Virus record (IMG/VR): IMGVR_UViG_3300037245_001077
Coordinates: 96,001-160,000 of that record
Length of the DNA stretch: 64,000 nt
Strand: one strand, 5' to 3'
Source: a virus
A program made the translations under genes and the position numbers. Below, piece by piece: positions 12,276-33,786 of this stretch. The notes below the pieces were generated by a model, which saw only the letters and a list, made by a program, of their open reading frames with translations, had not been told where the DNA came from and ran no database searches. Every line of letters starts with the position of its first letter. The stretch's first letter is position 1.

Positions 12276-12609
12276 AGAAGTTCTTTCAGCCTATCTTGTC
12301 TTGGTTAGAGTTAATTTACTGGGGGGAAAAGAGGTCGTAGCTGTTGATGCTTTCCGGGCAGAAGACGCGGACACAGCTTTGAACTACGCCCGGAACATGT
12401 TTCTTCGGAGTGGGGGAGAGGCAGTTGTTTATGGACAGGCTTCTTTTTTTAACGGGACCGTTGGTGCAGTAGAAGCTGAAGTTATCGGGATCTTGGATGA
12501 GGAGCATGAAATAAACGCTAAGTGGAGGACTTCCATGGATGTGTTCGATGAATTTCTTGAACGCGAGGAACTCAGGGACCAGCTAAAACAACGATATGAC
12601 GAGAAGTAA
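12265..12609 (+). CDS. hypothetical protein
   Basis: ORF overlapping both neighbours in operon fashion. Confidence 0.55.
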   Translation: MATKEVLSAYLVLVRVNLLGGKEVVAVDAFRAEDADTALNYARNMFLRSGGEAVVYGQASFFNGTVGAVEAEVIGILDEEHEINAKWRTSMDVFDEFLEREELRDQLKQRYDEK

Positions 12610-14722: not shown

Positions 14723-15076
14723 ATGAGCTTTCGTGAAAAAGTAGACGAACATATCGAAGAGACATTGATGGAAGGCGTTCTTCCGGACGTAGACGACGTT
14801 CTGGAGATAGAAGTGCCTAACCAGAAATCGGGACCACAGGCGAGTGGTGATGGAGGCGGGCCAAAGAGTGCTCGGGCTAGAGAAGCCACCTTCACTGACC
14901 ATACTGCACCCCCGAATTTTGGTGGAGCTAGCCGGGATAAGAAGTTCCCGTGCCCGCCTTTCAGTAATGCCAACAGAAGCATTCCACCTGCGAAATTCGG
15001 TGGTGCTGCCAAGATCAAAGAAGAGGCTATTCAAGCCGTTCTTGCTGACTTGGAAGCTATGCAGGATGCCGAATAA
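14723..15076 (+). CDS. hypothetical head/core protein with acidic leader
   Basis: GGAGG RBS; MSFREKVDEHIEETLME leader; PPNFGGA/PPAKFGGA duplication. Confidence 0.55.
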   Translation: MSFREKVDEHIEETLMEGVLPDVDDVLEIEVPNQKSGPQASGDGGGPKSARAREATFTDHTAPPNFGGASRDKKFPCPPFSNANRSIPPAKFGGAAKIKEEAIQAVLADLEAMQDAE

Positions 15077-15087
15077 GGGGGTTGCCA

Positions 15088-16185
15088 ATGGCAACCCTTA
15101 AGGGTCGCGCCCAGCAAAGTTTATTTGCTGTTAAGAAAAGGGTGCGGTTGAGTCCTTTAACTGTAGGCGATGCTACGGCAATCGCTTTTACGGTTGTACG
15201 TTCTTCACCGCACGCTTTGCTGCGTGCAGCATATGCTTCTAAGGAAGCTAAAACCTTCCCTAAGAACCCCAATCAACGGGTGTTCTACAACGCGGTTAAT
15301 TCTGTTGTAGACCATCGTAAGGGGAGCCTATACGCTGCTTTCGTGACCTCTGTAGATGTGCGTGGGGTGTACAATGCAGACCGTTTTGCTACCTCATTGA
15401 AGCGTCTAGGTATTCTGGATGACCTTAAGGTAAAACTGACCGCAGATGGTTTTGGGGAAGCAGCTACGCTTATCTCAAACAAGGCTCCTTTCTTCTGGGC
15501 TGATCTAACAAGTCGGGAGATAGATACTGTTCGTAAAGAAGTGTCGGGTGTTGTACAACGAGTGGTCTCTAGGTTTAAAGAAGACATCGATGAAAAAGAT
15601 ATCGATGAGTTGATCGAGGCACAGGTATTTCGGTTAAAGCCCTCGACTCTCAGTCCTCGTGCTCAACTTCTTCATGGTGCAAGTCAGCTAGATGTTGGTG
15701 GGGGCTACCAAAGTATCTTCTTAAACCTTTTTCGTAAACTAGCACAAAATTCTAGGGTAACGTTACTAAACCAAAACAGTAGCCTAGAGGCCACTTTTGA
15801 GTCTTTCCATCAGCACTTGATGACTAATGCTTCGGCCTTACAACGGTTGTTACCTAAGGCAAAATTTGGGAAACAATCTTTAACGCCACAACAGCTTCAG
15901 CGATTGTTTCGTGATTCACAATTCACTCGCCAAATGAAGAAGGCGTTTGAGGCATCTTACGATAGCAAACAACACGCAATTCGAGTAGATGCTCTTTACC
16001 GGGGTATGCGCCGTTATCACGTTATGGTTGATCTACAACGAGCAGCAAAGTCGAAGCTAAGAAAAAATCTAAATGATGACGCAGTATCTGGTATACTAAG
16101 CAGCGTTGTCGGATTGTTTTTCGCCTTTGCAGGGGATACTAAAGGTCAATCATTCCCTGCTATGAAGTCAATAGCAAAGGGGTAA
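15088..16185 (+). CDS. basic hypothetical protein with C-terminal hydrophobic helix
   Basis: ATG 15088 after TAAGGGGGT; K/R-rich; AVSGILSSVVGLFFAFAG. Confidence 0.6.
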   Translation: MATLKGRAQQSLFAVKKRVRLSPLTVGDATAIAFTVVRSSPHALLRAAYASKEAKTFPKNPNQRVFYNAVNSVVDHRKGSLYAAFVTSVDVRGVYNADRFATSLKRLGILDDLKVKLTADGFGEAATLISNKAPFFWADLTSREIDTVRKEVSGVVQRVVSRFKEDIDEKDIDELIEAQVFRLKPSTLSPRAQLLHGASQLDVGGGYQSIFLNLFRKLAQNSRVTLLNQNSSLEATFESFHQHLMTNASALQRLLPKAKFGKQSLTPQQLQRLFRDSQFTRQMKKAFEASYDSKQHAIRVDALYRGMRRYHVMVDLQRAAKSKLRKNLNDDAVSGILSSVVGLFFAFAGDTKGQSFPAMKSIAKG

Positions 16186-16188
16186 TTC

Positions 16189-18006
16189 ATGCCTGAAAAT
16201 AAATTGATTCAGGGCTTTATGCGTATGACTGGGCTGGATAAGGTTATTCAGCGTGAAGTAGCTCTACGCGCACAGCTCGGGGGTATCCAAACTCAATTCG
16301 CTGGTGGTGATGACCTTGTTGGGGATTTGGCTACTATTGAAGAGGCCCTAAGTCAGTTCAATATGATTACCCGGATGCATCGTGAACGTAGGATGCGTTA
16401 TCGGGATTACGAAGCGATGGACAACTACGGAGACGTATCCGTAGCTTTAGATATCTATGCGGAAGAGGCTACTCAGACTGATCTCGTTAAGGACGAGAAC
16501 CTCTGGGTAACGGGTGACGATGCTCGTGCAGTAGAAGAGGTGCAAAAATTTCTTGTTAAGCACCGTATGCATACCCTGATCCAGGGGTTTGCTCGGAATC
16601 TTGCTAAGTATGGAGACATGTTCCTATCCTTGAGGTATACGTATGAGGGGATTGATCGTATTCTCTATCTTCCCCCGGACTATATCCACCGTATTGGCCC
16701 TAGTCTGGATCAGATTAAGCACTTCAAGCTGGAGCACCAGCTTGCCAAGGTTTCTCCCCGTCAAGATGGGCTGTTGCTCCCTTGGGAGTGTGTCCATTTA
16801 AGATTGCTTTCGTTCGGGTTCTCCACTCTTTATGGGCGTTCTATGATTGAGCCTGCACGTAAGCGTTGGTTGCACCTAAAACTTCTTGAAGATGCGGTTG
16901 CTATCTACCGTTTGAATCGGGCTGTTGAGCGGATCGTTTTCTACATCGATGTGGGTTCTGCTTCACCTTCTGAGTCTCTGCGGATTGTAAACACCTACAA
17001 ACGGAAGTTTGGAAATAAGCGTTCTTACATTGATCCGTCGCAGGGTACATTCGAGCAGCAGTATGACCCCCACAACATGTTGGAAAACATCTACTGGCCT
17101 GTGAATAGTGCTACTGAGCGATCTCGCATCGAGAAGCTGAACCCTCCGCCTGAGCAGGGACAACTTCAGGATCTTGATCACTTCAACGAGAAACTTTATG
17201 TGGCTCTAGGTATTCCGCGTGATTACCTAACTGGAGAAACTTCAGGAAGCTGGAATAGCCGGGAAGCTTTGGCTCTTCAAGATGTTCGATTCTCCCGTAA
17301 GCTACATATGCTTCAGATTGCTCTCCTAGAGGGCCTGGAGACCCTGTGCCGCTTCCACCTTGCTGTCCTGTGGGGCGATCCTGACAGAGCGGTAGCAGCT
17401 CGGTTTAATCTCCATCTAGCGGATATCTCTAAGGTAGCTCGCCAACAGTACGACACCGTTATGCTTAATCGTATCCAGCTCTTGACCATGATGAATGATC
17501 TTGGTACTCAAATGAGCTTTAACCGGGACGTGTGGGTACCGTTTGTTGTTGAGAACTTCTTCCCTGATATTCCGAAAGAAATGATTTCGCAGTTGATCAT
17601 CCCTGATGAAGAGTTGGCTGCGGCAGGAGATGAGTTAGACGCTATGAGAAATCCTCCTCCTGCTGCGGCAGCAGCTAAGAAACCTGCTGCGGCAGCAGCC
17701 AAGAAACCTGCTGCGGCAGCAGCCAAGAAACCTGCTGCTAAAAAGAAGAAGACTACTACTGAGGTTATCCGGCACACGATCATGAATGATTTGTTGAGCC
17801 GTAATCTCGTAGAAGATAAGGACAAAAAACTTTTAGAAGATCTCCTTGCTGTAAGTGGGACCATACAGGGTCCACAGGATTTCTCTTTTACTTTAGACCA
17901 CCCTGTAGAAATTCCACGGAAAGTTTTACAAGAGTTGGTGAAGCAACATTCGAGGAAGAAGAAGCCTAATAGTGTCCTCGTGGAGACAACCAATGGGGGT
18001 AAGTAG
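16189..18006 (+). CDS. portal protein (T4 gp20-like)
   Basis: YRDYEAMD..DVSVALDIYAEEA, LKLLEDAVAIYRLNRAVERIVFYIDVG and DLDHFNEKLYVALGIP are gp20 family motifs. Confidence 0.93.
   Translation: MPENKLIQGFMRMTGLDKVIQREVALRAQLGGIQTQFAGGDDLVGDLATIEEALSQFNMITRMHRERRMRYRDYEAMDNYGDVSVALDIYAEEATQTDLVKDENLWVTGDDARAVEEVQKFLVKHRMHTLIQGFARNLAKYGDMFLSLRYTYEGIDRILYLPPDYIHRIGPSLDQIKHFKLEHQLAKVSPRQDGLLLPWECVHLRLLSFGFSTLYGRSMIEPARKRWLHLKLLEDAVAIYRLNRAVERIVFYIDVGSASPSESLRIVNTYKRKFGNKRSYIDPSQGTFEQQYDPHNMLENIYWPVNSATERSRIEKLNPPPEQGQLQDLDHFNEKLYVALGIPRDYLTGETSGSWNSREALALQDVRFSRKLHMLQIALLEGLETLCRFHLAVLWGDPDRAVAARFNLHLADISKVARQQYDTVMLNRIQLLTMMNDLGTQMSFNRDVWVPFVVENFFPDIPKEMISQLIIPDEELAAAGDELDAMRNPPPAAAAAKKPAAAAAKKPAAAAAKKPAAKKKKTTTEVIRHTIMNDLLSRNLVEDKDKKLLEDLLAVSGTIQGPQDFSFTLDHPVEIPRKVLQELVKQHSRKKKPNSVLVETTNGGK
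17659..17739 (+). repeat. 24-bp tandem repeat (3 copies plus partial) encoding PAAAAAKK
   Basis: CCTGCTGCGGCAGCAGC(T/C)AAGAAA at 17659, 17683 and 17707, partial at 17731. Confidence 0.95.
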
Positions 18007-18338
18007 TGTCAGTAACCTATCAGAAGTTGGCCGGTCGAATTCAGAATGACCCAAAGGCCCTAGACTACACACAAACGCAGCTCATGATCCTGATGAACAG
18101 GGTTTTCTTTCACATTGGGGATGCGCTAGCTTCCGGTGAAGACGTATACCTTGAAGGCTTTGGTCGGTTTTACCCAGACTGTAAACCCCCAAGAAAGATC
18201 AAGTCGGGGTTAACGTCAGAAGAGCACTTGACAGAGTTCAAAGTATTTGTTAAGTTCAATGCGTTTAAACAGTTAAATATCCAAGTGCAAGAATTGATGA
18301 AACGCTTGGGTATAGAAGATTACCCAGAAGGAGAGTAA
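18006..18338 (+). CDS. HU/IHF-family DNA-binding protein
   Basis: ALASGEDVYLEGFGRF...PPRKIKSGLTSEE...VKFNAFKQL; GTG overlaps the portal stop (TAGTG). Confidence 0.85.
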   Translation: MSVTYQKLAGRIQNDPKALDYTQTQLMILMNRVFFHIGDALASGEDVYLEGFGRFYPDCKPPRKIKSGLTSEEHLTEFKVFVKFNAFKQLNIQVQELMKRLGIEDYPEGE

Positions 18339-18339
18339 A

Positions 18340-18516
18340 ATGCTTCCGCACCAAAAGAACCCACAAAAAGAAGAAGAGCCGTTTACCACTATGGATAGAG
18401 AGATGGCTAAGGTCTACAAAGAGACCCATCCTCATTACGATGAAGAAGATTACTACGGTACCAAAGCTGCACTTGAGCCGGATACTGAAGACGACGATGA
18501 CAAAGAAACTGCATGA
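18340..18516 (+). CDS. 58-aa acidic small protein (not in ORF track)
   Basis: AAGGAG RBS at 18328; MLPHQKNPQKEEEPF...EPDTEDDDDKETA*; fills the gap after HU. Confidence 0.65.
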   Translation: MLPHQKNPQKEEEPFTTMDREMAKVYKETHPHYDEEDYYGTKAALEPDTEDDDDKETA

Positions 18517-19264
18517 AGCCAAGAATATTGGCGGTCATGCTGCGACAAAGAGTCCATGGCGACATCATGCGATAGTTGCCACTGTAAGTGCGGCCCTTCG
18601 CCCAGGTAGATCTCAAGCCCTACACGATGTAGGGCAGCGGATGATGTTCCCTCGTTTTGCTAGGCTTGAGGCCGAATTCCGTAGACAATTGACGGATACC
18701 TTCAAGACTATCACCACAAACGGGGAGATGAGCAACCGGAAGATAAAAAAGATCTTCCGGATTTTCTATACCCAAGCTTTTCAAATGGGGCAAGCTGTTT
18801 CCAAAGGGGGAATTAGCCAGAAGCTTCCTCCACTTAACAAGGAGGATAAGCGGTGGTTAGAAACCTACCTGCGGAAAGAGTTTGATCTGTGGAAAAAGTT
18901 CATGGGCGATGTCCGGGCCAAAAAAGGAAAGATGGATTACGACCAGCGTAAGGAGTTGTATGTTCAAAGCCTGAGATCCATGTATCACAGTTCTCGGGTG
19001 ATTGCTACACCACCTATGACATTGTTCTATTGGATGACCACTCCAGCGGAGCACTGTCCACATTGTTTGTACTTGCAGGCGAAAAGCCCGTACATAAAGG
19101 AAAATCTCCCTACGGTTCCCGCAAGTGGAGATACGCAATGCCAGAGCAATTGTCGCTGTCATCTACGGGCAGTTCAAGTTACCATCGTGGAATATCTTAG
19201 GGTCAAACAAAAAGCCCCGACTCGTCAGGAGCTTCTTCGGGGAATGCGTGCCCTCACCAGATAA
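18497..19264 (+). CDS. head morphogenesis protein (Mu gpF / SPP1 gp7-like)
   Basis: YWMTTPAEHCPHC...PASGDTQCQSNCRCHL metal-binding motif; start reassigned to 18497 (MTKKLHE). Confidence 0.7.
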   Translation: MTKKLHEAKNIGGHAATKSPWRHHAIVATVSAALRPGRSQALHDVGQRMMFPRFARLEAEFRRQLTDTFKTITTNGEMSNRKIKKIFRIFYTQAFQMGQAVSKGGISQKLPPLNKEDKRWLETYLRKEFDLWKKFMGDVRAKKGKMDYDQRKELYVQSLRSMYHSSRVIATPPMTLFYWMTTPAEHCPHCLYLQAKSPYIKENLPTVPASGDTQCQSNCRCHLRAVQVTIVEYLRVKQKAPTRQELLRGMRALTR

Positions 19265-19297
19265 GCTGCGGTATTCATTAACTGGTAGGAGTTGGAT

Positions 19298-19771
19298 ATG
19301 AATTTGGTTGAAAAGCTAGACGCCTTCCTCACAGACATGTTGGGGAAAGGGTTTTCTGGGGGTGAGATTGCGGAACTACTCCTATTTGAAGATTTTCAAT
19401 TATCGGAGACCGTAAAGCGTGTTCGCCGTAAAGTAAGTGGGATCAACGTTACTATACGTAAAGTGGGGCGTCCTAACCCCCTTAGATCTCAAAAAGCTAA
19501 GAGAGCTGCACGTGCCCACAGAGCTACTCGGGCAGCCGCTTCGCGTAGGTTCCAACGGTCTCCTAAGGCCAAGCAGATGCGTCGAGTGATGTCTCGGGTA
19601 CGGAAGACTAAGCCTAAGCGTCTTAGCCGTCCTAAGCGTCCAGCAATGCGGCGTCCTAAGCGTCCAGCAACCCGGCGTCCTAAGCGTATAGCGACACGGC
19701 GTCCTAAGCGTTCAGCGACACGGCGTCCTAGAGTGAAGCGGTATGGTCCTCCTCGTCGGCGTAGGCGGTAA
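19298..19771 (+). CDS. protamine-like Arg/Lys-rich protein with acidic leader
   Basis: AGGAG RBS before ATG 19298; last 120 aa contain no D or E; RRPKR repeats. Confidence 0.8.
   Translation: MNLVEKLDAFLTDMLGKGFSGGEIAELLLFEDFQLSETVKRVRRKVSGINVTIRKVGRPNPLRSQKAKRAARAHRATRAAASRRFQRSPKAKQMRRVMSRVRKTKPKRLSRPKRPAMRRPKRPATRRPKRIATRRPKRSATRRPRVKRYGPPRRRRR
19628..19732 (+). repeat. 24-bp period repeat encoding RPKRxAxR
   Basis: CGTCCTA(A/G) at 19628, 19652, 19676, 19700 and 19724. Confidence 0.92.
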
Positions 19772-19774
19772 ATT

Positions 19775-22700
19775 ATGAGAGTTGGGGACACTTTTCCTTC
19801 TAATGTTCGTTGGCGTTTCTATGACATCATGGAAATTGACCAAAAAGAATTTAGAAAACGCAGCAACCACAACGGTATTACCAAGTTGATGTGGCATGGC
19901 CTCTTCGGGGGCAATTCTAAAACTTTGCCCATGGTGTATGTCAACGGTATTCCCGCAGAAGAAACTCCTGACCGGGAGAAGTATCTCGTACTTCGCCCAA
20001 AGGGGAGAGAGGGGCTACTTTCGGCTACTGCCCTAGCAACTAAGCACGGGCATCTTCCTCGTAGCTTTTCTGCTTATCTTGTAGCGCCTTCTCCCGAGTT
20101 CTTTGAAAGTTTGTCAGTAAAAGCATATGGGCTTTGGCAGGACGTTGCAGATAGGAAAATAACTGCGAAAGCTGCTGAAGGAAAAATAGAAGACTTCGTT
20201 AACAGAGAAGCCGATAAGATTGTTTTAGGGCGAATAGTTATCCGGGCGAATAGCCGATCAACCAAAAGAGAGTGGACCTCCTTCCAGGTGAGCGCGGATA
20301 TGGGTAGCCGGGAAGTCATGCGTTGGGGAGGATTGGCTGTTGGTACAAGTAATTTTCCTGCACAAGAGAAAGCAAAGCTTACAACAGGGATTAGCCCCAG
20401 TAACCGAGAGCTAGATGTTCGTTCAGCGGTTACTCTAAACTATTATGCTGGGGCTTGGAAACTGTTCCAAAAGTTTGTGACCAGTCCTAGAACATCAGAG
20501 GGGCCTATAGCTCAACTCCATAAAGCTTTGAACGCTGGTTCGGTACGCGAAGGTTATGACACAGCAGACACGCCACACAAAAGAAAGCCTGAAGGGACGC
20601 CTGAGGTTCCTAAAGAAGAAGACAAGCCCACTTTCCGTAGACAAGAGTACAACCGCAGTAAGGTTGTTCCCTCTCGTCCCGTGACAGGTGGTGGGGATGC
20701 CGCTAATTTTGTCACCGCGAAAACGAGTGAAAAAGTATGGCAAAATGCCCAAGGGGTGTACATAGTCCCTAAGGATATGAACAGAAGGTCGATGGGGAGG
20801 CTACAGCCTGTTAGCACAGTGGCTCCTTTGGTTGAGACAAGTGAGTTCAAGGTAATCTTTGGGATTGTGTATGACCACCCACTGTTTAACTCTAGACTCA
20901 AAGACCAAATTTGGTGGTACTCTAACCGAAACCAGTTTATTGCTTCTGCCAAAGAATACGCCATGATGTTTGGAGATCAAGCGCACTTGGCCTATCGGAT
21001 TATCCCAAAAAGAGGGAAATTGGCCAATACGTACATCTCCAAGAACGTGTTTTCTTCACAGTTTACTAGCCCGGAAGTGAATGAAACTACGATTGAGCTA
21101 GGGCGTTTGGTACAATCTTTCATTCGAGCAGGGAAAGAGGGCCAACGGCAATACCCCGTTATAGTCCAAAAACGGTTAGGTATCACGGAAAAGGATATAC
21201 GTAACACGGACAAGGATGAGCGTCCAGAATCAGTTACTCCTGAAGCTTGGGTTCACTACTTACGTTGGGTTCGTAGGCAGACCAGAGGTGTTTTGGGGCT
21301 TAACATTATGGCCTCAATTCCTAAGAAGTATGTGGACCTTGATACTGGAAAACTCAAGCCTCTTCAATTCTCTCGGTATGACCAGAAAGCGCGTATTGGG
21401 CGTAAGAGAACAGAGCAGTTCACAGGAGAAAAAGACGCTAAGGGTAAGGCTATTGAGCCTTGGGGCCTTTACTTGATCCAGTACCTACTAGCTTACAAAG
21501 CCAACCGATCAATGTCGGGGGCTACGTTTATGATCCCGCTCAATGTTTTACGTGCTACTAAGGTAGAATTGTCTCCGCGTAATAGCTTAAAACGAATTGA
21601 TGCAATCTCGTTGAAGAAGCTATTACGAGAGCACTACAATAAATACCGTTTTCTGTCTAGTGGGAATTGGCATTTCATCAAAGCTGAAACACATCTTCAT
21701 TTTCCATTTGCACGATTGATTCGACCTATGGTTGTTGTTAGTAAGGAAAAACTGGATAAGATCAACCAAAAGATTAGCTATCCAGGGATCAGACGTACTC
21801 ATCATGGGTACGTAATTGATGGGATTGAGTACTCAGCTTACGCTATGGTAGTGGCTATGCCCCCATCAGTGGCTGACAAAGAGTTTGGGCTGTTGAATCG
21901 CCACGCATACGCACGCCAGATTATTGACGAACCAGAGATGGTGTATCGTCTACGGCGTACTATCCGAGGCCACCGCCAATCAATGCGGGACATGGGGTTA
22001 ACCAACGTTTATCTTAAGCTCCAAGGGTTAACAGATGAAGATCCAGATGTTATGATGGGTAAAAGCCCTGGTGTATCTTTCCACACGAAGAAGTCACTTG
22101 CCGGTACAGATCCTATAGACGTACTTGGGAAAACTTCAACGATTCTTCCTACGGATTACTACGCTAAGTTTAACGAAATTGGGAAGAGATGGGAACCTAT
22201 TATTAAATCGGTTCTTGATAGAGCAGGTAACGTTGTTAAACGTACTGTTATGGGGTACCAAAGTACTAATGATCTTGCACAAAAACACTCAGCATACATA
22301 CAGTACATCGAGGAAGTGATTAAACTTAACCCAGCAGTGCGTGGTTATCTCAAACGGTATCTTGCGGATCTGGCACGAGTAAGGGCTACTCCTGGGACAG
22401 AACAAGGGGAAATGGCTGCTGCTGCCGATATTTTTGTTAAGTATTTGGAGCGAGAAGTTAATCCTGGTTCAGGGAAACATTACCGGGTACCTACACTCAT
22501 TAACCGCTTAGGACTTACAGAGTACCACGCTCCTTGGGGTTCGGTACATGGTTCTTCTCAAATGATGACCACAAAAGCTCCTTCTGAAGATGTGGCAAAA
22601 TTGATTATTCTGCACCGACTACTTCGTCGTTCTGCTCAGAACAAAGCCGTAGGTCGGGTAATGAACGTGACGAGATTTAGGGGAAGAGGGAAATTGTTTC

Positions 22701-22885
22701 CTGATCTCCATGGACGTATTTTGGCACAATGGGCTTCGGCTAAGTTTATGGTGGTCGCAAGTCATGATCCTAAAGGAGTGCGTCGGATTGAACAACGGAG
22801 ATTCTATAGCGCCCGATCAAGAGAAGTTCAGCAGGCTGCCCCCATGGGAGACCATCGTTACGCTAAGATGCTACGGACAGATTAA
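19775..22885 (+). CDS. large basic hypothetical protein, internal virion protein candidate
   Basis: 1036-aa ORF, K/R-rich, no recognised motif, within the head operon. Confidence 0.65.
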   Translation: MRVGDTFPSNVRWRFYDIMEIDQKEFRKRSNHNGITKLMWHGLFGGNSKTLPMVYVNGIPAEETPDREKYLVLRPKGREGLLSATALATKHGHLPRSFSAYLVAPSPEFFESLSVKAYGLWQDVADRKITAKAAEGKIEDFVNREADKIVLGRIVIRANSRSTKREWTSFQVSADMGSREVMRWGGLAVGTSNFPAQEKAKLTTGISPSNRELDVRSAVTLNYYAGAWKLFQKFVTSPRTSEGPIAQLHKALNAGSVREGYDTADTPHKRKPEGTPEVPKEEDKPTFRRQEYNRSKVVPSRPVTGGGDAANFVTAKTSEKVWQNAQGVYIVPKDMNRRSMGRLQPVSTVAPLVETSEFKVIFGIVYDHPLFNSRLKDQIWWYSNRNQFIASAKEYAMMFGDQAHLAYRIIPKRGKLANTYISKNVFSSQFTSPEVNETTIELGRLVQSFIRAGKEGQRQYPVIVQKRLGITEKDIRNTDKDERPESVTPEAWVHYLRWVRRQTRGVLGLNIMASIPKKYVDLDTGKLKPLQFSRYDQKARIGRKRTEQFTGEKDAKGKAIEPWGLYLIQYLLAYKANRSMSGATFMIPLNVLRATKVELSPRNSLKRIDAISLKKLLREHYNKYRFLSSGNWHFIKAETHLHFPFARLIRPMVVVSKEKLDKINQKISYPGIRRTHHGYVIDGIEYSAYAMVVAMPPSVADKEFGLLNRHAYARQIIDEPEMVYRLRRTIRGHRQSMRDMGLTNVYLKLQGLTDEDPDVMMGKSPGVSFHTKKSLAGTDPIDVLGKTSTILPTDYYAKFNEIGKRWEPIIKSVLDRAGNVVKRTVMGYQSTNDLAQKHSAYIQYIEEVIKLNPAVRGYLKRYLADLARVRATPGTEQGEMAAAADIFVKYLEREVNPGSGKHYRVPTLINRLGLTEYHAPWGSVHGSSQMMTTKAPSEDVAKLIILHRLLRRSAQNKAVGRVMNVTRFRGRGKLFPDLHGRILAQWASAKFMVVASHDPKGVRRIEQRRFYSARSREVQQAAPMGDHRYAKMLRTD

Positions 22886-23934
22886 TGGGTTTTTTGGTTA
22901 TCGAACGTCACGTATTTTACGCAGAGGGGAAAGAATATGCTGACCCGCGTTCTGCTGGGCAGACTCATCTCTTTTTGCGTCACCAACGTGTGCCTTGGGA
23001 AAATAGTTTCTACAAGAGCGTGGTATACCTTTCTGGTGCTCAGTTGTCTACTCCTCCTTCTAGTGGAGGACGTTCGGCTGGAATCGAAACCATGCGTGAG
23101 TACTTTTTGGGGAGTAAGAAATATGCTCACCCAAGACTTATCGTGGGGGATATCCATTCATCTAATGAAATTATGTCCAAGAGTCAGATCGGGCAACTTT
23201 TAGTAGGGTCATACGCTCGCCGGTACAGTGCTTTCGCTAGAGAACACACAATCCGAAAGCCTAAAGACAGAGGGAATGAGGGGTGGTTTGTTTTTGACCC
23301 CTCTCAACCTGGACGGAAAGCGTTGAAGCGGGATACCTACTTACGGTTGGCTAGAGCAGTAGTCAAGAAGATGTCTCCTAACAAAACTACGCGCCCTAAA
23401 ATGTACACAGGTAAAGATGGTCGTCGTCGGCGTTATGACACGGACAAGATTATTGTTTTGGGTATGGGGTATCGGTTAGCTTACTACCACGGTCCAACTT
23501 CTGAGTTGGCGGATATGGGAGCCGATAACAAGCTGCAACGTCGAGTTAACCAGTTCTTAAGTAAGCAAGCAGGCTCTGTAGGTGAAGCAGGGAAAGAACA
23601 GTGGTTCGTACTTGGGAAGTTCAAGACCGCGTATGCGAGTGTTCGTGCGCGTCCTACTCCTCATGGTAGACAGATGAAGGTTTTAACTTACCGTCAGGGT
23701 AAGGGTTTACGCCCAGTAGCTAGAGAAGAAAGTACAGCCATTAGGCCCCTGTTCATTGTTAACGCTAGGACAGAACAAGAAGCTAAAGAGGAGGCTCAAA
23801 AGCGTTTTTCGCAGATGATGGGTACAGATTCGGTCCAACGTCGGCAAGCTGTACTTCAACAGGAGAAGTGGGTTGATAGCGGAGAAGCTGTCATCCCGCG
23901 TAGAATATGGAACATGCACCGCTCAAACCATTAG
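22885..23934 (+). CDS. basic hypothetical protein
   Basis: TAATG coupling; K/R-rich. Confidence 0.6.
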   Translation: MGFLVIERHVFYAEGKEYADPRSAGQTHLFLRHQRVPWENSFYKSVVYLSGAQLSTPPSSGGRSAGIETMREYFLGSKKYAHPRLIVGDIHSSNEIMSKSQIGQLLVGSYARRYSAFAREHTIRKPKDRGNEGWFVFDPSQPGRKALKRDTYLRLARAVVKKMSPNKTTRPKMYTGKDGRRRRYDTDKIIVLGMGYRLAYYHGPTSELADMGADNKLQRRVNQFLSKQAGSVGEAGKEQWFVLGKFKTAYASVRARPTPHGRQMKVLTYRQGKGLRPVAREESTAIRPLFIVNARTEQEAKEEAQKRFSQMMGTDSVQRRQAVLQQEKWVDSGEAVIPRRIWNMHRSNH

Positions 23935-24008
23935 AGGACTTCTCTTAAAAAGTTTGGTTCCTGAGGGTTTATTGTGTGTGGATGCATAGATTTGATAGGA
24001 GGATTGAC

Positions 24009-24377
24009 ATGAATCGCCCAATAGACACGCTCTACTATCAGTGGGTTGCTAATGAAGAAGACAAGCAGATCCCAACTGTGTTTGAAGAGATTACTGAAAT
24101 GGAAGACGCTGAGAAGTTCGATGACCTTCTAAGCGTGTATGCTGATGCCGTTGCTGCCCTGATCGAAGGGGAAGTAGCACATCGTGCGCTGATCGAAGAG
24201 TACATCACCCAGGCCACTTGTGACGAAGCATTGCAGGAAGCTGGCCAAGAAGAAATTGCCCAAGCCATCCAAGAGATGGAAGACGTTCAAGAGAGTGAAC
24301 AAGACGTAACCGCTTGCAGGAATTCTTTGGATATCCTGCACACTAGCCTCGTGAAAACGTTTGCTCGGGGCGAGTAA
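24009..24377 (+). CDS. acidic helical protein, prohead core candidate
   Basis: ATG 24009 after AGGAGG; Glu-rich. Confidence 0.55.
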   Translation: MNRPIDTLYYQWVANEEDKQIPTVFEEITEMEDAEKFDDLLSVYADAVAALIEGEVAHRALIEEYITQATCDEALQEAGQEEIAQAIQEMEDVQESEQDVTACRNSLDILHTSLVKTFARGE

Positions 24378-24382
24378 AACTG

Positions 24383-24856
24383 ATGAATAAGAAACCGTTA
24401 GTTCGGGCGTCACAGATCACCAATGCTGAGGCTGTACGTGAGGCTCTAAATCGGCTACTATACGGCGACGATGAAGCGCCTAGAGACACGAAAGCTTACG
24501 GTTGGAACAAGCTCCACTATGATGAGGGGAGAGACGACATGAAGATGTGGTACGAAGAATTGCAGGACATTGATAAGGTCATTTCGGAAGCTGAAGAGGT
24601 TAACCCTACAGACCTACCCACGGGTGGGTTAGTAGAGAAGCTGGATGTCGCAGCAGAGAAATTGAGTAGTTGGTACGCAGCGGCTGTGCCTATTTACCAA
24701 AAGCGCATTCTCCATATTCGTTATGACGAGTTGGCAGAGCTTGCTGGTGACCTTCGTTCTGGAAAGATTAACTCGGCAGAAGCTCAAGCACGTTTTGACG
24801 ATGTGATGGCAGACGTTAGTGAGATTGTAGACTTTTCGAAGTTCATGGAGGGTTAA
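24383..24856 (+). CDS. acidic helical hypothetical protein
   Basis: ORF within the operon. Confidence 0.55.
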   Translation: MNKKPLVRASQITNAEAVREALNRLLYGDDEAPRDTKAYGWNKLHYDEGRDDMKMWYEELQDIDKVISEAEEVNPTDLPTGGLVEKLDVAAEKLSSWYAAAVPIYQKRILHIRYDELAELAGDLRSGKINSAEAQARFDDVMADVSEIVDFSKFMEG

Positions 24857-24859
24857 GCC

Positions 24860-25228
24860 ATGCCGACCCTATCGTTTGATGGGTCGGTCTACTACTCTAG
24901 CGAGGTTGATCGTAGGGAGCTAGTAAGGCTTGCCCCGTCGTATGATGTTGATGTGCTCATGCAACGTGCTCGGTCTACTATCGTGGCCGCTGACGTTCAT
25001 GAAATCAACTTTACTGATTTGCCTAACAACAAGGCTACCAACATTCTTCTCTCTGTAGCAGAGGGGGATGTTGATGTGGCTATTACGGATGATAATTCCG
25101 TTGTCAGTACGTATAACCTAAAACCGTCAGGTATGATAATCTTGATGAATACGCTTGTTACGGACCTCACTATTACGGCTATTGCCGACTCCGTGTATGA
25201 CTTGATCGCTGCTGGGAAAGCATCATAA
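24860..25228 (+). CDS. small beta-rich structural protein candidate
   Basis: GGAGGG RBS; alternating beta pattern. Confidence 0.5.
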   Translation: MPTLSFDGSVYYSSEVDRRELVRLAPSYDVDVLMQRARSTIVAADVHEINFTDLPNNKATNILLSVAEGDVDVAITDDNSVVSTYNLKPSGMIILMNTLVTDLTITAIADSVYDLIAAGKAS

Positions 25229-27408
25229 TGCGATTTCCAAAGATACCTTCTGTACCTGAGCTAGGGCTATTTTATGGGGATCAGGGGGGACCGGGAACGA
25301 GTCTCCCTTCTTCTGATGCCCATAAGCTATGTCCTTTTTTAGCTGGGGAAGACAAGGCGTTTTGCTCGTTGGATGGGGCCTTGTGCCCTTTCATCGGGTT
25401 TAACTACCGTAGGTGTAAGAAGTACACCAACAACATGGCTAAGGGTACTTTGCAAGCCAATGACAGGGTTTCAGGTTCCAGTAAACCCCCCCGCATGGAG
25501 GCCCTCACAGAAGCGGCCAAAAAAAGGGGGTCCGCAAGTGAAGAAGACGTTACCAAAGCCTTAGATAGTCTTGAAGCTAAAGACATTAAGTCAGGGCTGT
25601 TTGCTGCTTTCGCTACTGACTTAGGAGTTCTAGCGGATGAAGGTGCGTCTCCAGAGGAATTAAAATCTCTCCAAGCAGAAATTGAACAGCAACTGTTGGC
25701 TTTTAAGCTTGTAACTCCCCCTATCATTGGGGAACCTGAGCCTGGAGAAACTGCGAAAGAGCGTAAAACAAGAGAAAAATTCGCAAGTAAGAGGATCAAC
25801 GCTCAAAAATTTCAACTTGAAAGAAAAAGAAAACTTGTAAACGCTTACATTGTTCGTACACTGGGTAGTATAGATGACAGTGGACGTAGGGCGAATGTTC
25901 AGATTGCCGCTGATGCTTTGTTCGATTTTGCCACTATGAGTGTGGAACAAGGTGTTCCAGATATAACACACTACCAAACACGACAAACCAATATCCGTCA
26001 TCATGATGCAGGAAACACGGAAGATCTGTTTTTCGGTAAGTACTCAGAGCGCATGAAGCACTCAGCTACATCTGCCAGTACAGAAGACCCAGACAACCGT
26101 CCCCATGAGCCACGTAAGGGACCGAATAGGGGTGCAAGTGCTCCTGATCCTAAAGGGCACCCTGGCCCAAGGCCCAGAAAGTCTTACGCTGGAGAGTCCC
26201 AAGCTAAAGCTAGAAATGCTTATGAGGCCCAAAAAAGAGCGGATAAGGCAGCAAGAAAACTTTTTAAAAAAGCCAAGAAGAAGGCTAAAAAGAAGGCTAG
26301 GGATAGACGTTTTAAAGAGCTAGAGAAAGAAGTAGCTAAAGGTGCATCTCCCGCGTATAAAGCATATAAGCGTCACCCTAGCGGACAAGCCCAAACTAGC
26401 ACGAAAGCACGTACCGCAGAGCAATTTGCTGGTTGGGCAAATGAGCTGTCTAAACATTACTCACAAGAGACTATAGACGCTGTTTTCCGTGGAGGAAATC
26501 GTGACGCAGATCAGAATATAGAGACAACAAAACAATCAGCCGAAAAACTCTATGCGAATAATGATGTTAAGAGTATTGCAGATTTACAAAAAGGACTTTT
26601 AGCAAAGTTGAGCAAGTTTGATGATATCGAGCACAAGAAAAAGGTTTTCGATTTAGAGTTTGAAGAAAATAAGAGAAAAGCACGGATACTTGACCCACGT
26701 CTAGACGAAAAGTTGAGAGCTTGGAAAACTGATCCAGAGCGATTGGGTAAAATTGCTACGATGCAAAATAAGGCCATTCGTAGACTCTATAGACTTGAAT
26801 ACCAAAAAGTAAAAATTGGTAACAGTGAGGTTATGCAAACTATTCGTAAAGCCACGGTACCTATGATGACCCGTGCAGACTATGAAGTTATTCGTATGTC
26901 TGAACAGCTTGGGTTGGCCGCAATCCAGAAGCAACATCAGTATGGACGCAAATATGGTAAATTTAACAGTTGGGTGTTGTTTGCAAAATCAATAGTTATA
27001 CCTGCTTTTGCCGCATCTCTGGGGTATACTCAGTATATCCCTATCCTTAGCCGTGCTTTCCCACAGCCCTGGTTAGACTCTTTCTACTTTGCTTACGTAG
27101 AAACACCTTTGCCCAAGTACCAAAGGTATGGGGGTAAAGATGATGGGCTGGTAATGTCTCGTGACGATAAGAGTATGATCAGCCAGCGTATGGTTTCTGG
27201 GCGTAGCAAGAAACTCATGAAGGGCTTTGATAAAGACTATGTTATGCCCCCGGATAGAGCGGTACTACACACCCAGTGGCGTCCTACCACTAAGAAGAGT
27301 TGGGGAAAAATTCGCCATAAAGAGTTGGCAAGACGGTTTCATGCTGCTAAAGTTAAGCCCCCTGCGGGTGCGGCTGATACTTGGCGTCGTGGGTTCTTAC
27401 GGAGATAA
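25228..27408 (+). CDS. basic hypothetical protein with N-terminal 4-Cys motif
   Basis: CPF..C..CPF..C motif; KKAKKKAKKK tract. Confidence 0.6.
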   Translation: MRFPKIPSVPELGLFYGDQGGPGTSLPSSDAHKLCPFLAGEDKAFCSLDGALCPFIGFNYRRCKKYTNNMAKGTLQANDRVSGSSKPPRMEALTEAAKKRGSASEEDVTKALDSLEAKDIKSGLFAAFATDLGVLADEGASPEELKSLQAEIEQQLLAFKLVTPPIIGEPEPGETAKERKTREKFASKRINAQKFQLERKRKLVNAYIVRTLGSIDDSGRRANVQIAADALFDFATMSVEQGVPDITHYQTRQTNIRHHDAGNTEDLFFGKYSERMKHSATSASTEDPDNRPHEPRKGPNRGASAPDPKGHPGPRPRKSYAGESQAKARNAYEAQKRADKAARKLFKKAKKKAKKKARDRRFKELEKEVAKGASPAYKAYKRHPSGQAQTSTKARTAEQFAGWANELSKHYSQETIDAVFRGGNRDADQNIETTKQSAEKLYANNDVKSIADLQKGLLAKLSKFDDIEHKKKVFDLEFEENKRKARILDPRLDEKLRAWKTDPERLGKIATMQNKAIRRLYRLEYQKVKIGNSEVMQTIRKATVPMMTRADYEVIRMSEQLGLAAIQKQHQYGRKYGKFNSWVLFAKSIVIPAFAASLGYTQYIPILSRAFPQPWLDSFYFAYVETPLPKYQRYGGKDDGLVMSRDDKSMISQRMVSGRSKKLMKGFDKDYVMPPDRAVLHTQWRPTTKKSWGKIRHKELARRFHAAKVKPPAGAADTWRRGFLRR

Positions 27409-27410
27409 TA

Positions 27411-28889
27411 ATGGCTCGTACTACACCACGTAAGGTTACTCCTAAACTCCAGTCTGTTGGAGGTGCGCGTCCTGTTAGATTTGAGGGCGGGACAGAGATG
27501 GAGTTGCATGGGTATTTGATCCCTGAGAAGCAAGAAGCTCGGGTAGAGATACCTATTTTCCAACATGCCTTCTACCCCACGCTCAAGCATACTGACCTTG
27601 ACGTTAAGCAGAACATCACCTACCGCTCTGTAACGCTTCCCTCCTTGTCCACCCTTAGGGCACATGGTATCGAGGCTGAGAGGGCCGTTTTTGTGGCTGA
27701 GGTGGTCGTTCATCCTCGGTACATCAAACACGCAAATTATTTCCGGGGGGATTTTCCTGCGAGCATGAAGACTCTTGCCCGTCGAGAAAATATCGTTTTT
27801 CTTTTCGCAGCTAACGATATGCCCTCGGCTAGGTTAAAGCGGAAGCAGGTTTTGAACTTCTGGCGTTTATCCTTTTCTCCTCTTTTGTTGAAGGGGAGAC
27901 AGTACACCTCTGGGCGTATGAGCTTCTTTATGGTTGCGCCTCCAGAGTCTGTGTCTAAGTTTAAGAGGTCGCTTAACCTTGAGGGTGTAACTGCGGAAAA
28001 CGTTAACAAGATTTTAGAATATTACCCTGCGGTTAGCCGTACACGGAGACCAAGAAAACGTGGACCTCGTGCGAAGTACACGGTTGAAGAGCGTAGGTTG
28101 GCTAACGAGTTGGTGAAAGAAACTTCCAGTAGGTTGTCAGACCAACTACTTCCTTTGGTGACTTCAAAATTTGACATCGCACCGAACTCGTCTACAGCTA
28201 AGCAGTTGGATGCTTATTTGAGTAATCCCGCTACTAGCCGAGAACTGATAAAGGCTACAGAAGGTAAGCGTAATCGTGCTTGGGCAGTAAAGAAATGGGT
28301 GAAGTCATCCATGCTTCCCCGTGTAATAGAGATTGCCAAGGACGAAGCGGCAATGGCAGGGGAGTCTATAGTCCGTTTTGCTGTTCTTGCAACTATCACA
28401 ACAGGAGTTAATATCGCCCTAGGACAGGCACAAGCCAGTAGAATAGGTAAAAAAATTAACGCCCTTCAGAAACTTGAGTATAAGCCTTCTCGGATGGCTT
28501 CGCATACACAGGTAGGCGCAGGGACTCTGGCTTTCAAGTTCTCACCTAATGCTAAAGACTTGTCTTCTATGCAACTGCAAGTAACCAAAAAAGCGATGGC
28601 AGAAATTATGGGCAATTTTGGGCAGTGGGATTACACTTCCGCACAAGGGTCTCTTTTTGACATCACGCTGAACTTGCACAATAAAACTAAACCAATAACA
28701 GTTAAATTGGACCATGCTGCGTTAAGAGTTCACCGGGGGCAGAACAAAGAGAACTTAGGGCCTTTTGCACATAAAAGTCAAGATAACTACCTCACCCAAC
28801 ATATTCTACCCGGCGTAGAACGAGAACTGAACATGTGGTTCCAGCACGGTAGAGAGTCTGAAGAAGATAGTCTACTAGGCAATTATTAA
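27411..28889 (+). CDS. basic hypothetical protein with hydrophobic helix
   Basis: ATG 27411 after GGAG; IVRFAVLATITTGVNIALG. Confidence 0.6.
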   Translation: MARTTPRKVTPKLQSVGGARPVRFEGGTEMELHGYLIPEKQEARVEIPIFQHAFYPTLKHTDLDVKQNITYRSVTLPSLSTLRAHGIEAERAVFVAEVVVHPRYIKHANYFRGDFPASMKTLARRENIVFLFAANDMPSARLKRKQVLNFWRLSFSPLLLKGRQYTSGRMSFFMVAPPESVSKFKRSLNLEGVTAENVNKILEYYPAVSRTRRPRKRGPRAKYTVEERRLANELVKETSSRLSDQLLPLVTSKFDIAPNSSTAKQLDAYLSNPATSRELIKATEGKRNRAWAVKKWVKSSMLPRVIEIAKDEAAMAGESIVRFAVLATITTGVNIALGQAQASRIGKKINALQKLEYKPSRMASHTQVGAGTLAFKFSPNAKDLSSMQLQVTKKAMAEIMGNFGQWDYTSAQGSLFDITLNLHNKTKPITVKLDHAALRVHRGQNKENLGPFAHKSQDNYLTQHILPGVERELNMWFQHGRESEEDSLLGNY

Positions 28890-29617
28890 TGCTGTACTTA
28901 GAACAAGAAGCTGCCCTTCGTCAGGTTACAGAGGGAGTAGATGTTCTTTCTCACTTCCTAATGGAGCTGTATGATTTAGACGAGGATGATGCTCTAGACA
29001 CAGTACGAGAACTACCTGATCTTATCAATAAAATCCAAGACAATAAGCTCCGAGAATTGTTTGAGGTAGCGGCTAAGCGTGCTCGTACTAAGGTAATCAA
29101 ATTCAATCAACCAAACCCCGATGAGTTCTACCCTGGCCATCCAAAGTTCATGCCGAATATTACAACCAAGAGTACGTTTAACGAGCATATGGCTCAAGCG
29201 TTAGAGCCTTATGTCACATCTATTATGCGTAAAGTAGCTAAGGATCGTGGCCTTAAAGCTCCTGAGGAGCGTGTTGTTAAAGCAGTTATAGCCCAAACAG
29301 ATTGGGCAAGAGCCGCATACGAAGCTAAACGTATGCCCCCTAAGCCTCCTCCAAGCCAATTACGCCGGTTCTTTAGAAAGTATCTTGGTCCATTAGAACG
29401 CAAGTTATCTGGGGCTACAGGTATGTTGTTTGGAATAGCCATGTCTGCCCTTATGATGCAGATGATGTGGCAAACCTTTAAGCATTCCGCTGAAGCAGCA
29501 GGAGGAGGAGTGAAAAGTTTCATACCCTTCTCTCATGCTTCTCAGCACAGAGTGCAGAACAAGTATCAACGCAAACTGGGTATTCCTAAACGGTTCCGAA
29601 CCTTTAAGACCTTCTAA
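28889..29617 (+). CDS. protein with acidic leader, basic body and TM-like helix
   Basis: Acidic N-terminus ending LRELFE; GATGMLFGIAMSALMMQMMW. Confidence 0.6.
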   Translation: MLYLEQEAALRQVTEGVDVLSHFLMELYDLDEDDALDTVRELPDLINKIQDNKLRELFEVAAKRARTKVIKFNQPNPDEFYPGHPKFMPNITTKSTFNEHMAQALEPYVTSIMRKVAKDRGLKAPEERVVKAVIAQTDWARAAYEAKRMPPKPPPSQLRRFFRKYLGPLERKLSGATGMLFGIAMSALMMQMMWQTFKHSAEAAGGGVKSFIPFSHASQHRVQNKYQRKLGIPKRFRTFKTF

Positions 29618-30027
29618 TGGGGGTTAAACGGCAATGGAAGGTTATGAAGTTGAGGCAGTTGCCTATAGCTGAAGATGTCCGGGCACAGCTTGTCAAGGAT
29701 ATCATTAGGCGTAAGTGCCCTACCGTTAAACTTTATGCCTGGGACGTTCACCATGAAGGTGTTCATCTCGTTGCCAAACAAGCATTTTTCAATCAACAAC
29801 AAGCCCTAAAAGATTGGTATATCTCTAAACGGCTGTGGGAAAAAGAATCTCCTCCGGCTGGGATAGTTGTCTACGCATGGAAAACAGATGTAGATGACAT
29901 CACTAAACACGCTAAGGGTACTTCTTTGCGCGAAATTACGTTGCCTCGTAAGCGGGAGATGGATGTTGTTATCCTCCCCTCCTCTGTACAGGAGGATATA
30001 CAACGAACCCTGGAAAACCAGTCCTAA
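29617..30027 (+). CDS. hypothetical protein
   Basis: TAATG coupling to the upstream gene. Confidence 0.5.
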   Translation: MGVKRQWKVMKLRQLPIAEDVRAQLVKDIIRRKCPTVKLYAWDVHHEGVHLVAKQAFFNQQQALKDWYISKRLWEKESPPAGIVVYAWKTDVDDITKHAKGTSLREITLPRKREMDVVILPSSVQEDIQRTLENQS

Positions 30028-30120
30028 ACCCTAGCTCTTATCCCTCTATATGCATAATTGATTGACTTGGGAAACCGGAGAACTTTGGTTTACCTGAAAT
30101 AAAACCATAGGAGGTAACAG

Positions 30121-30393
30121 ATGACCTATCCGAATATGGATCTGCAATCCTTACCCGCGAATATCGATTTGCGAGTTGGGACAGATCAGGCCGAACGGAC
30201 TCTCCAGCTTTCGTACTGGCAAGTCTGGGCTGGTATCCAGTCGTTGAATATCATCGATAATCTGGGTATTCGTCCTGAAGTTGTGGTCAATGCTGGCGAT
30301 GAAGCTGCGTTCGATACAGCTCTCGGAAACTTGATTGCTGAACTTGTCGCTGCGACTGTCTATTACGACGAAATCTTTGCAATGGTTCCGTAG
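30121..30393 (+). CDS. small hypothetical (head) protein
   Basis: AGGAGGT RBS. Confidence 0.6.
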   Translation: MTYPNMDLQSLPANIDLRVGTDQAERTLQLSYWQVWAGIQSLNIIDNLGIRPEVVVNAGDEAAFDTALGNLIAELVAATVYYDEIFAMVP

Positions 30394-30401
30394 GATAGTG
30401 C

Positions 30402-30767
30402 ATGGAAGCACGGCGGCTGATTGACGCAGACATCATCTTAGGGGAGTCCCTTACAAGATTCCATCTTGCGATGGACAACTCGATGTTTCCTGATAGCAGC
30501 ACCGAACTCCATGTAGCTCACCATCCGAATGGTGACCTTAGAGAACCGGCACAATGGTACAATGTTTACGAACATCCTACTGAGCACCAGCTCAAGCTAG
30601 TTCGTGAAGCACTTAATATCGATGAGGACGACTGGAGGATTGTAGAGCACATGCTCGGATCTTTTCGCTGGGTTATTTACCAGCATGTTGACCCCTCAAA
30701 ACGCGCTGAAATTCGTGTCGATGTTGCCGGTATGAAGGCCGGTGAATGGACAACAACCTACTTCTAG
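30402..30767 (+). CDS. hypothetical protein
   Basis: ORF preceding the protease. Confidence 0.55.
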   Translation: MEARRLIDADIILGESLTRFHLAMDNSMFPDSSTELHVAHHPNGDLREPAQWYNVYEHPTEHQLKLVREALNIDEDDWRIVEHMLGSFRWVIYQHVDPSKRAEIRVDVAGMKAGEWTTTYF

Positions 30768-33723: not shown

Positions 33724-33751
33724 ACCACTGTCAGTGACCGAGTAGTAATCT

Positions 33752-33786
33752 AAGCCCCTCACAGTTTTGTGGGGGGCTTGTCTTTA
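33752..33786 (+). terminator. terminator after the capsid gene
   Basis: AAGCCCCTCACA-GTTT-TGTGGGGGGCTT stem followed by GTCTTTA. Confidence 0.75.

Follow-up and report, generated by a model that had tools for sequence, protein, structure and literature searches.

A conserved cassette of basic and small acidic proteins in the head operon of an uncultured marine phage, with candidate prohead-loaded internal or ejection proteins

Introduction

Proteins packaged in the head let phages deliver ready-made weapons or helpers together with their DNA. The sets known so far are few (the T4 internal proteins with Alt, P1 Dar, and the phiKZ inner body), and each comes from a cultured phage. Here we ask what is encoded by a long run of unfamiliar genes that separates the portal gene from the prohead protease gene in an uncultured phage from marine sediment, known here from sequence alone, and whether the products could form another such set. 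The phage is represented by the IMG/VR record IMGVR_UViG_3300037245_001077 (176.5 kb, estimated to be 81% complete), and the window that we analysed is a stretch of 64,000 nucleotides (nt) corresponding to bases 96001-160000 of that record. An earlier note on this DNA had singled out positions 14723-30767 of the window as a block of basic proteins within the head operon and had proposed that they form an undescribed DNA-condensing, inner-body or ejection system. We report that the block is a conserved gene set of undescribed families, and we lean towards the view that its products are internal or ejection proteins loaded into the prohead, with an HU homologue and an Arg-rich polypeptide residing on the DNA.

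Results

The head module of this phage is of T4 type, as it comprises a Portal_T4 portal, an S77 protease and a gp23-type major capsid protein (MCP), while a contractile tail is encoded further on in the window (sheath at 38120-39964, plus baseplate wedge and hub). The nearest cultured phages belong to the SP-15 group (Bacillus SP-15, Listeria LIS04 and Bacillus HSE3), with a capsid protein that is only ~35% identical. From TerL to the MCP gene run 21 co-oriented genes with 20 junctions, none of which has a gap of more than 93 nt; start and stop codons overlap as TAATG at 22885, 25228, 28889 and 29617 and as TAGTG at 18006, and the sole strong intrinsic terminator in the 14.0-33.9 kb region lies directly after the MCP gene (Table 1). 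The portal stop and the protease start are 12.7 kb apart, and this interval holds 15 genes: one encodes an HU-fold protein, eight encode basic proteins with an isoelectric point (pI) of 9.6-12.0 and a total of 3,424 amino acids (aa), and six encode small acidic proteins (pI 4.0-5.2). One further basic gene (367 aa) and one acidic gene (117 aa) occupy the gap between TerL and the portal. A pI profile bore out the open reading frames (ORFs), coordinates and charges listed in the earlier note for the basic cassette, as well as the small acidic ORFs interleaved with it (six in the block) and the TAATG coupling (four overlaps). The span had been started one gene too early for a basic protein, the ORF at 14723 being acidic with a pI of 4.7, and ortholog alignments shift four starts, those of the basic ORFs at 18497, 19298 and 27411 and that of the protease at 30778. 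The charge bias of the block exceeds chance: proteins with a pI above 9 account for 82% of the residues at 18.0-30.7 kb versus 9% in the remaining window, and for 8 of 14 genes in the block versus 6 of 45 elsewhere in the window (Fisher p = 0.002).

The block is syntenic, gene for gene, in five further IMG/VR contigs. Relative to the window, the terminase, portal and capsid protein of these related contigs are 65-87% identical and the small acidic proteins mostly 50-88% identical, while identity falls to 25-48% for the basic proteins of 157, 1036, 349, 726, 492 and 242 aa when the three or four contigs at greater distance are considered. The basic proteins thus evolve fast, and against their 25-48% the TerL, portal, MCP and acidic proteins keep to 55-82%. 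One distant contig, L021, encodes a 1155-aa homologue that is only 25% identical and maintains the order of two basic genes, four acidic genes and three basic genes; the second basic protein there can no longer be recognised by BLAST and still has a pI of 10.2. Since L021 retains both features despite its divergence, charge and gene order are under selection in addition to the sequence itself. The acidic cluster of L021 includes a fourth gene (5816-6178, 120 aa, pI 4.4) without a counterpart in the window.

No comparable block is found at this position in T4 or in the nearest cultured phages. The portal-protease interval of T4, for which the earlier note had named only small core genes, spans 0.7 kb with two small genes (67 and 68), that of the SP-15-type phages LIS04 and HSE3 consists of two small ORFs and a ribonucleotide reductase, and that of Maribacter phage Colly_1 contains a single 246-aa ORF. 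Scans of the block proteins against Pfam, PHROGs and NCBIfam matched only the portal, HU, the protease, the MCP and phrog_24776. Searches of PDB profiles with four family alignments gave nothing below E 0.08, the 1036-, 726-, 492- and 367-aa proteins had no tblastn hit in 50,697 phage records, and an exhaustive profile search together with word-indexed searches returned clade members only, none of them with a Pfam domain. The contigs of the clade stem from several JGI, ENA and Logan samples. Paralogy between the block families was not found by hhalign either. By the measure of these searches the block components are undescribed families, nearly all of them orphan, so that what holds of the undescribed system proposed earlier is the novelty of its families and the existence of a conserved, co-oriented block.

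Two genes of the block point to DNA binding. The HU protein that the earlier note had placed between terminase and protease is recovered by PF00216 well above threshold (38.9 bits versus a gathering cut-off of 22.4, model positions 4-89 of 90); it has a pI of just 6.1 and is 58-88% identical in relatives. The Arg-rich 157-aa polypeptide is divided into 40 N-terminal residues with a net charge of -5 and a remaining 117 residues with a net charge of +52, and this design of leader and Arg-rich body recurs in all six orthologues. It is the only truly protamine-like member of the block.

The 255-aa protein, whose gene starts 491 nt past the portal stop, carries a C-terminal Cys/His domain and matches phrog_24776, a PHROG without assigned function. 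Its family has 42 homologues, all in this clade and without Pfam domains. By hhalign (probability 97.5%, E 8e-12), the Cys/His domain has a homologue in Synechococcus phage Sc-Yong805-2 (OR075997.1, 41 kb), namely a 226-aa ORF at 2242-2922 that lies directly between the portal and an HK97-type protease. On this sequence homology, the two proteins define a portal-adjacent head-protein family outside Pfam coverage, and the 255-aa protein is a candidate portal-associated minor head protein. It resembles SPP1 gp7 and Mu F (gp30) in that its gene follows shortly after the portal gene and in its C-terminal EH...NCRC-like Cys/His motif; the classical location of MuF/gp7 genes is likewise portal-adjacent, as for the Sc-Yong805-2 homologue. 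Because more direct tests for this relationship were negative or very weak, namely PF04233 (MuF) without a match up to E 10 in six family members, Mu gp30 at 1% hhalign probability even with the EH...NCRC motif aligned, and SPP1 gp7 at 0.3%, we label it a portal-adjacent head protein and not MuF. An Atlas likeness to the MuF type (0.92, 144 shared features) is a lead only. The ORF next to the portal gene of Maribacter phage Colly_1 showed no homology to the 255-aa protein.

The large basic proteins differ from the Arg-rich polypeptide in kind. Structure models (AlphaFold2, AF2) cover the 1036-aa and 492-aa proteins, which have a net charge of only about +6 per 100 aa, and the modelled proteins are predicted to be folded and multidomain and not simple polycations. 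A search of 1.84 billion representatives with a family profile of the 1036-aa protein recovered 29 relatives, each of the same type. Foldseek, a check proposed in the earlier note, gave a best E value of 0.1 in whole-model searches of PDB and BFVD, and Atlas returned no usable match. VIA searches with this model were dominated by rows for a helical hairpin at residues 787-874, the remaining domains being barely probed; because the hairpin swamped these rows, we make no claim of new folds. Weak repeated rows for chalcone isomerase and FemA/FemX in the fold searches are leads only.

The 492-aa protein has 23 relatives, all clade members and without Pfam domains. Its AF2 model has a predicted local distance difference test (pLDDT) score of 77 overall and above 90 over the N-domain (residues ~20-190), the neighbours of which are of GNAT fold in 48 of 50 rows (Z 5.5-6.9, 94-140 residues aligned, root-mean-square deviation 3.4-5.0) and include Mu Mom, AcrVA5 and AAC(6'). 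These Z scores are too low to be set clearly apart from chance, and no Foldseek E value is better than 0.013. The acyl-coenzyme A (CoA) motif Q/R-x-x-G-x-G/A is absent from the domain, the loop after the strand at residues 91-100 reading HPRYIKHxNYFRxDFPA with no Gly, and a PF00583 search of the genome returned nothing. Across the 23 sequences the domain keeps invariant His, Asp, Tyr, Ser and Arg residues. Its likeness to GNAT proteins is thus a fold-level lead only.

The best-conserved portion of the 726-aa protein is its N-domain of ~95 residues (25228-25520), in which PxLGxFYGDxGGPG is followed by four invariant Cys (CPF...FC.LDG..CPF.GFNYR.C.KY.NN); the domain ends at a conserved L-x-E↓A and may serve as a metal-binding targeting domain or as a pro-domain. 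The 349-aa protein is the fastest-evolving gene product of the block. The three proteins encoded at 25228-29617 and the one encoded at 15082-16185 each have a single hydrophobic segment at the same place in orthologues, with Kyte-Doolittle 19-aa maxima of 1.3-2.05.

Processing by the S77 protease was approached through [LIVM]-x-E motifs conserved across the ortholog alignments. There are 16 such sites in the acidic scaffold-like tail that is fused to the protease in a single 511-aa gene (net charge about -83), and three more fall within the first 55 residues of the MCP. Of the basic proteins, that of 726 aa has a single site, L-x-E↓A at residue 95, which is kept in six of six orthologues and lies exactly at the end of the four-Cys N-domain, and the Arg-rich polypeptide has one at residue 33; inspection of its alignment locates an L-x-E at the leader/body boundary in five of six orthologues. 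A site at residue 7 of the 255-aa protein reads L-x-E↓AK, and the 242-aa protein has one conserved site within its acidic N-region. The motifs are suggestive of cleavage for some of the basic proteins and absent from others.

Other features of the operon are compiled in Table 1. Residues 231-628 of the TerL-like protein are 30-34% identical to SP-15-type TerL, and Pfam and PHROG scans gave no match to it. The portal has a basic, Ala/Pro/Lys-rich C-terminal extension (~17650-18006) with (PAAAAAKK)x3 plus KKKK; its sequence varies among orthologues while its Lys-richness is constant. The PAAAAAKK units are encoded by a near-perfect 24-bp tandem repeat (17684-17723), and since the orthologues differ in length there, expansion and contraction of the repeat is suggested. 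Family scans (Pfam, PHROGs) found no match to the 117-aa ORF. A ToxA_N hit of the 367-aa ORF (23 bits versus a cut-off of 27) was sub-threshold and is taken as chance. The 58-aa ORF and the 255-aa gene, which are in different frames, share 20 nt at the start of the latter. The 90-aa and 121-aa ORFs, which occupy the positions of T4 gp67 and gp68, show no homology to the respective T4 protein.

Table 1. Features of the head operon, with positions in the window
Position	Strand	Feature	Length (aa)	pI	Remarks
12596-14674		TerL-like gene	692		Long N-terminal extension
14723-15076	+	Acidic ORF	117	4.7	Between TerL and portal; 40-85% identity in five related contigs
15082-16185	+	Basic ORF	367	10.2	Conserved moderately hydrophobic C-terminal segment
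16189-18006	+	T4-type portal			Portal_T4, E 3e-43
18006-18338	+	HU/IHF-fold DNA-binding protein		6.1	PF00216 (Bac_DNA_binding), E 1e-9; phrog_379, E 2e-11; start overlaps portal stop
18340-18516	+	Acidic ORF	58	4.4	Conserved in 6/6 loci
18497-19264	+	Basic protein with C-terminal Cys/His domain	255	10.3	EHCPHC...C-x-SNC-x-CHLR; phrog_24776, E 1.5e-9
19298-19771	+	Arg-rich polypeptide	157	12.0	35% K+R; acidic/hydrophobic leader of ~40 aa
19775-22885	+	Basic multidomain orphan	1036	10.0	AF2 pLDDT 74
22885-23934	+	Basic orphan	349	10.4	TAATG-coupled start; 25-35% identity among relatives
24009-24377	+	Acidic ORF	122	about 4.2	48-81% identity in relatives
24383-24856	+	Acidic ORF	157	4.6	64-88% identity in relatives, 52% in L021
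24860-25228	+	Acidic ORF	122	4.2	53-74% identity
25228-27408	+	Basic protein	726	9.9	N-domain, L-x-E↓A site, variable Lys-rich middle, conserved C-terminal part with hydrophobic segment
27411-28889	+	Basic protein	492	10.1	GNAT-like N-domain (~20-190), helical C-terminal part with hydrophobic segment
28889-29617	+	Basic protein	242	9.8	Acidic N-terminal region of ~60 aa; hydrophobic segment near residue 175
29617-30027	+	Basic ORF	136	9.6	
30121-30393	+	Acidic ORF at position of T4 gp67	90		67-88% identity
30402-30767	+	Acidic ORF at position of T4 gp68	121		64-79% identity
30778-32313	+	S77 prohead protease fused to very acidic scaffold-like tail	511		PF03420 (Peptidase_S77), E 2e-17; phrog_207, E 5e-41
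32347-33723	+	gp23-type MCP			PF07068 (Gp23), E 8e-69; 35% identical to SP-15/LIS04 MCP
33751-33780	+	Strong intrinsic terminator			13-bp stem then T-run; directly after MCP gene

Discussion

From gene content, order, charge, conservation and fold hints, we infer a sequence of expression, loading, cleavage, DNA binding and ejection in which the block would be a lineage-specific expansion of the prohead-core gene set in a T4-type head. The proteins would be made late, alongside the portal, the protease-scaffold and the capsid protein, and would be built into the prohead core, probably held there by the acidic scaffold tail and the small acidic proteins; six such proteins and a tail of net -83 could hold the basic proteins before DNA entry. 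The S77 protease would trim some of them at L-x-E sites, and they would remain in the head as DNA replaces the degraded scaffold and exit along with this DNA upon infection. The HU homologue and the Arg-rich polypeptide would bind and neutralise DNA, the 255-aa Cys/His protein would be located at the portal, and the 1036-, 349-, 726-, 492- and 242-aa proteins would act as delivered effectors or pilot proteins.

A prohead-core role is favoured because the block sits at the position of T4 gp67/gp68, between the portal and the S77 protease and MCP. It is supported further because the genes are closely spaced in one direction, as a single unit that meets its first strong terminator at 33751, because the 255-aa domain is homologous to a portal-adjacent gene of an unrelated phage, and because synteny and charge pattern are retained in relatives down to ~25% identity. 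The charge bias relative to the remaining window and the placement of the candidate L-x-E sites in the 726-aa protein, the Arg-rich polypeptide and the scaffold speak for it as well. That the basic proteins diverge quickly is in keeping with contact with the host. In T4 the internal proteins are likewise a diverse set (PMC3012670); the T4 core is made up of the acidic gp22, gp67 and gp68, which gp21 degrades, and of the basic IPI-III and Alt, which it trims and which then stay with the DNA and are injected (PMC9958956; PMC3012670). Ejection proteins are packed as a bolus in SPN3US and phiKZ (PMC5694885).

Several observations weigh against prohead-loaded internal or ejection proteins. Family and profile searches found no homology of the block proteins to known internal, inner-body or ejection proteins, and the phage being uncultured, virion content is deduced from its genes. 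Neither a common motif nor a targeting tag was found at the N-termini of the nine basic proteins, and only two of the nine have acidic leaders. Conserved [LIVM]-x-E sites were not found in the alignments of the 1036-aa and 349-aa proteins, and a subclade of the 255-aa family (6 of 41 homologues) has lost the Glu of the N-terminal L-x-E. The GNAT-like fold predicted for the 492-aa protein would suit a non-virion enzyme equally well, and position in the interval does not guarantee a structural role, because the SP-15-type relatives hold a ribonucleotide reductase there. Our preference for prohead-loaded proteins is accordingly a slight one, because gene context, charge and motifs make up the whole of its support.

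The threefold proposal of the earlier note (DNA condensation, inner body, ejection) divides along the same line. Virion-internal cargo fits the data, while DNA condensation by the block as a whole sits poorly with a single protamine-like protein and with large proteins that are modelled as folded, one of them GNAT-like. Chromatin-like packaging, in which HU and the protamine-like polypeptide, once its acidic leader has been removed by the protease, are co-packaged with the large basic proteins and together neutralise or organise the DNA, is a conceivable extension that we hold to be doubtful. If true, such nucleoprotein packaging would be a case of convergence with the pVII/Mu core of adenovirus, and it would set this head-internal system apart from the T4 internal proteins and from the phiKZ inner body.

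Could the basic proteins act outside the virion, as late enzymes or host-takeover proteins, perhaps a DNA-modification or nucleic-acid-processing set whose charge serves nucleic-acid binding in the cell? The GNAT-like N-domain, with its invariant residues and with Mu Mom, which modifies DNA (Z 6.5 over 133 aligned aa), and AcrVA5 among its neighbours, would suit such a role, as would the folded multidomain models of the large proteins and the ribonucleotide reductase in the same interval of SP-15-type relatives. We nevertheless judge it unlikely, as enzyme families gave no sequence match, the CoA-binding motif is absent, a small phage has the homologue of the 255-aa protein next to its portal gene, and the alternation of basic and acidic proteins, together with protease-type sites, is unexpected for an enzyme pathway. 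Less probable still is that the proteins serve in assembly only, as core or scaffold accessories degraded or expelled at maturation like T4 gp22, gp67 and gp68. The block does lie at the gp67/gp68 position, those proteins of the T4 core are broken down by gp21 into small peptides (PMC9958956), and the small acidic proteins show the good conservation of structural parts; the fast divergence of the basic proteins is, however, unusual for scaffolds, and their complete degradation is improbable because conserved [LIVM]-x-E sites are few or none: the 1036-aa and 349-aa proteins lack them and the 726-aa protein has a single one, versus the 16 of the scaffold.

The hydrophobic segments of the three proteins at 25228-29617 and of the protein at 15082-16185, conserved and moderately hydrophobic in each, would be expected if these were podovirus-like pilot or conduit proteins that insert in the host envelope and not a DNA-associated core. 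Their hydrophobicity is borderline, they may be buried helices in the models, and the phage, equipped with a contractile tail of sheath, baseplate and hub, has no obvious need of a protein conduit; we consider this quite improbable. Highly diverged subunits of a virion RNA polymerase, as in phiKZ- and crAss-type phages, are nearly excluded, with motif, PF00623 and fold evidence all negative. The size and head-module location of the large basic proteins are like those of packaged polymerases, and the 1036-aa protein contains a DEDPD string; this string is not conserved in orthologues, none of the four large families has an invariant D-x-D, D-x-D-x-D or NADFDGD motif, RNA_pol_Rpb1_2 (PF00623) is absent from the genome and found in 14 of 14 control genomes, and fold searches of the 1036-aa model returned no polymerase.

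Were the block packaged, it would be a large, conserved 15-gene set of unknown folds, including a candidate effector of GNAT-like type and the first candidate for a protamine-like protein in a tailed phage. Its proteins would also occupy capsid volume and alter the charge balance of the DNA, which bears on packaging physics and on the control of genome length. If it is not packaged, it still offers about ten unexplored protein families that look essential for one phage lineage.

Among known systems, the T4 core shares with this phage the S77 protease, the gp23-type MCP, the T4-type portal, extra genes at the gp67/gp68 position, the pairing of basic proteins with an acidic scaffold, Glu-ending cleavage motifs (putative sites in this phage) and fast-diverging basic proteins. 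It differs in scale, with 0.7 kb and two genes as opposed to 12.7 kb and 15 genes; here the proteins are of much greater size (up to 1036 aa), the protease and scaffold are fused, and neither a shared capsid-targeting sequence nor gp67/gp68 homology is present. Adenovirus pVII/Mu and the sperm protamines are short, extremely Arg-rich polypeptides, with a leader possibly removed by a virion protease. The 157-aa polypeptide is similarly short, extremely Arg-rich and equipped with a leader, its cleavage and its condensation of DNA being candidate properties, and it differs from pVII/Mu in having no homology and in belonging to another virus lineage; a literature search found no precedent for a protamine-like protein in a tailed phage.

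phiKZ and SPN3US offer a myovirus head with many megadaltons of internal proteins, some of them processed after Glu and expected to be ejected (PMC5694885), to be compared here with genes only. They use an S80 protease with an A/S/G-x-E motif, paralogous inner-body families (pfam12699) and a packed multisubunit RNA polymerase, whereas the block described here goes with an S77 protease and has no paralogy, no Pfam match (including pfam12699) and no polymerase. The P1 Dar proteins (DarA, DarB, Hdf) are reported to be large myovirus-head proteins tied to head morphogenesis and injected with the DNA (PMC9024508; PMC12810830); sequence similarity to them was not found, and their genes are not inserted between portal and protease. 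Packaged internal proteins are thus already known from T4, P1 and phiKZ/SPN3US, and the block most likely represents this known strategy built from new parts. What is new in the cassette is its make-up of families that lack known relatives and a shared tag, its size, and its composition of HU, a leader-bearing Arg-rich polypeptide, a GNAT-like domain and a Cys4 domain.

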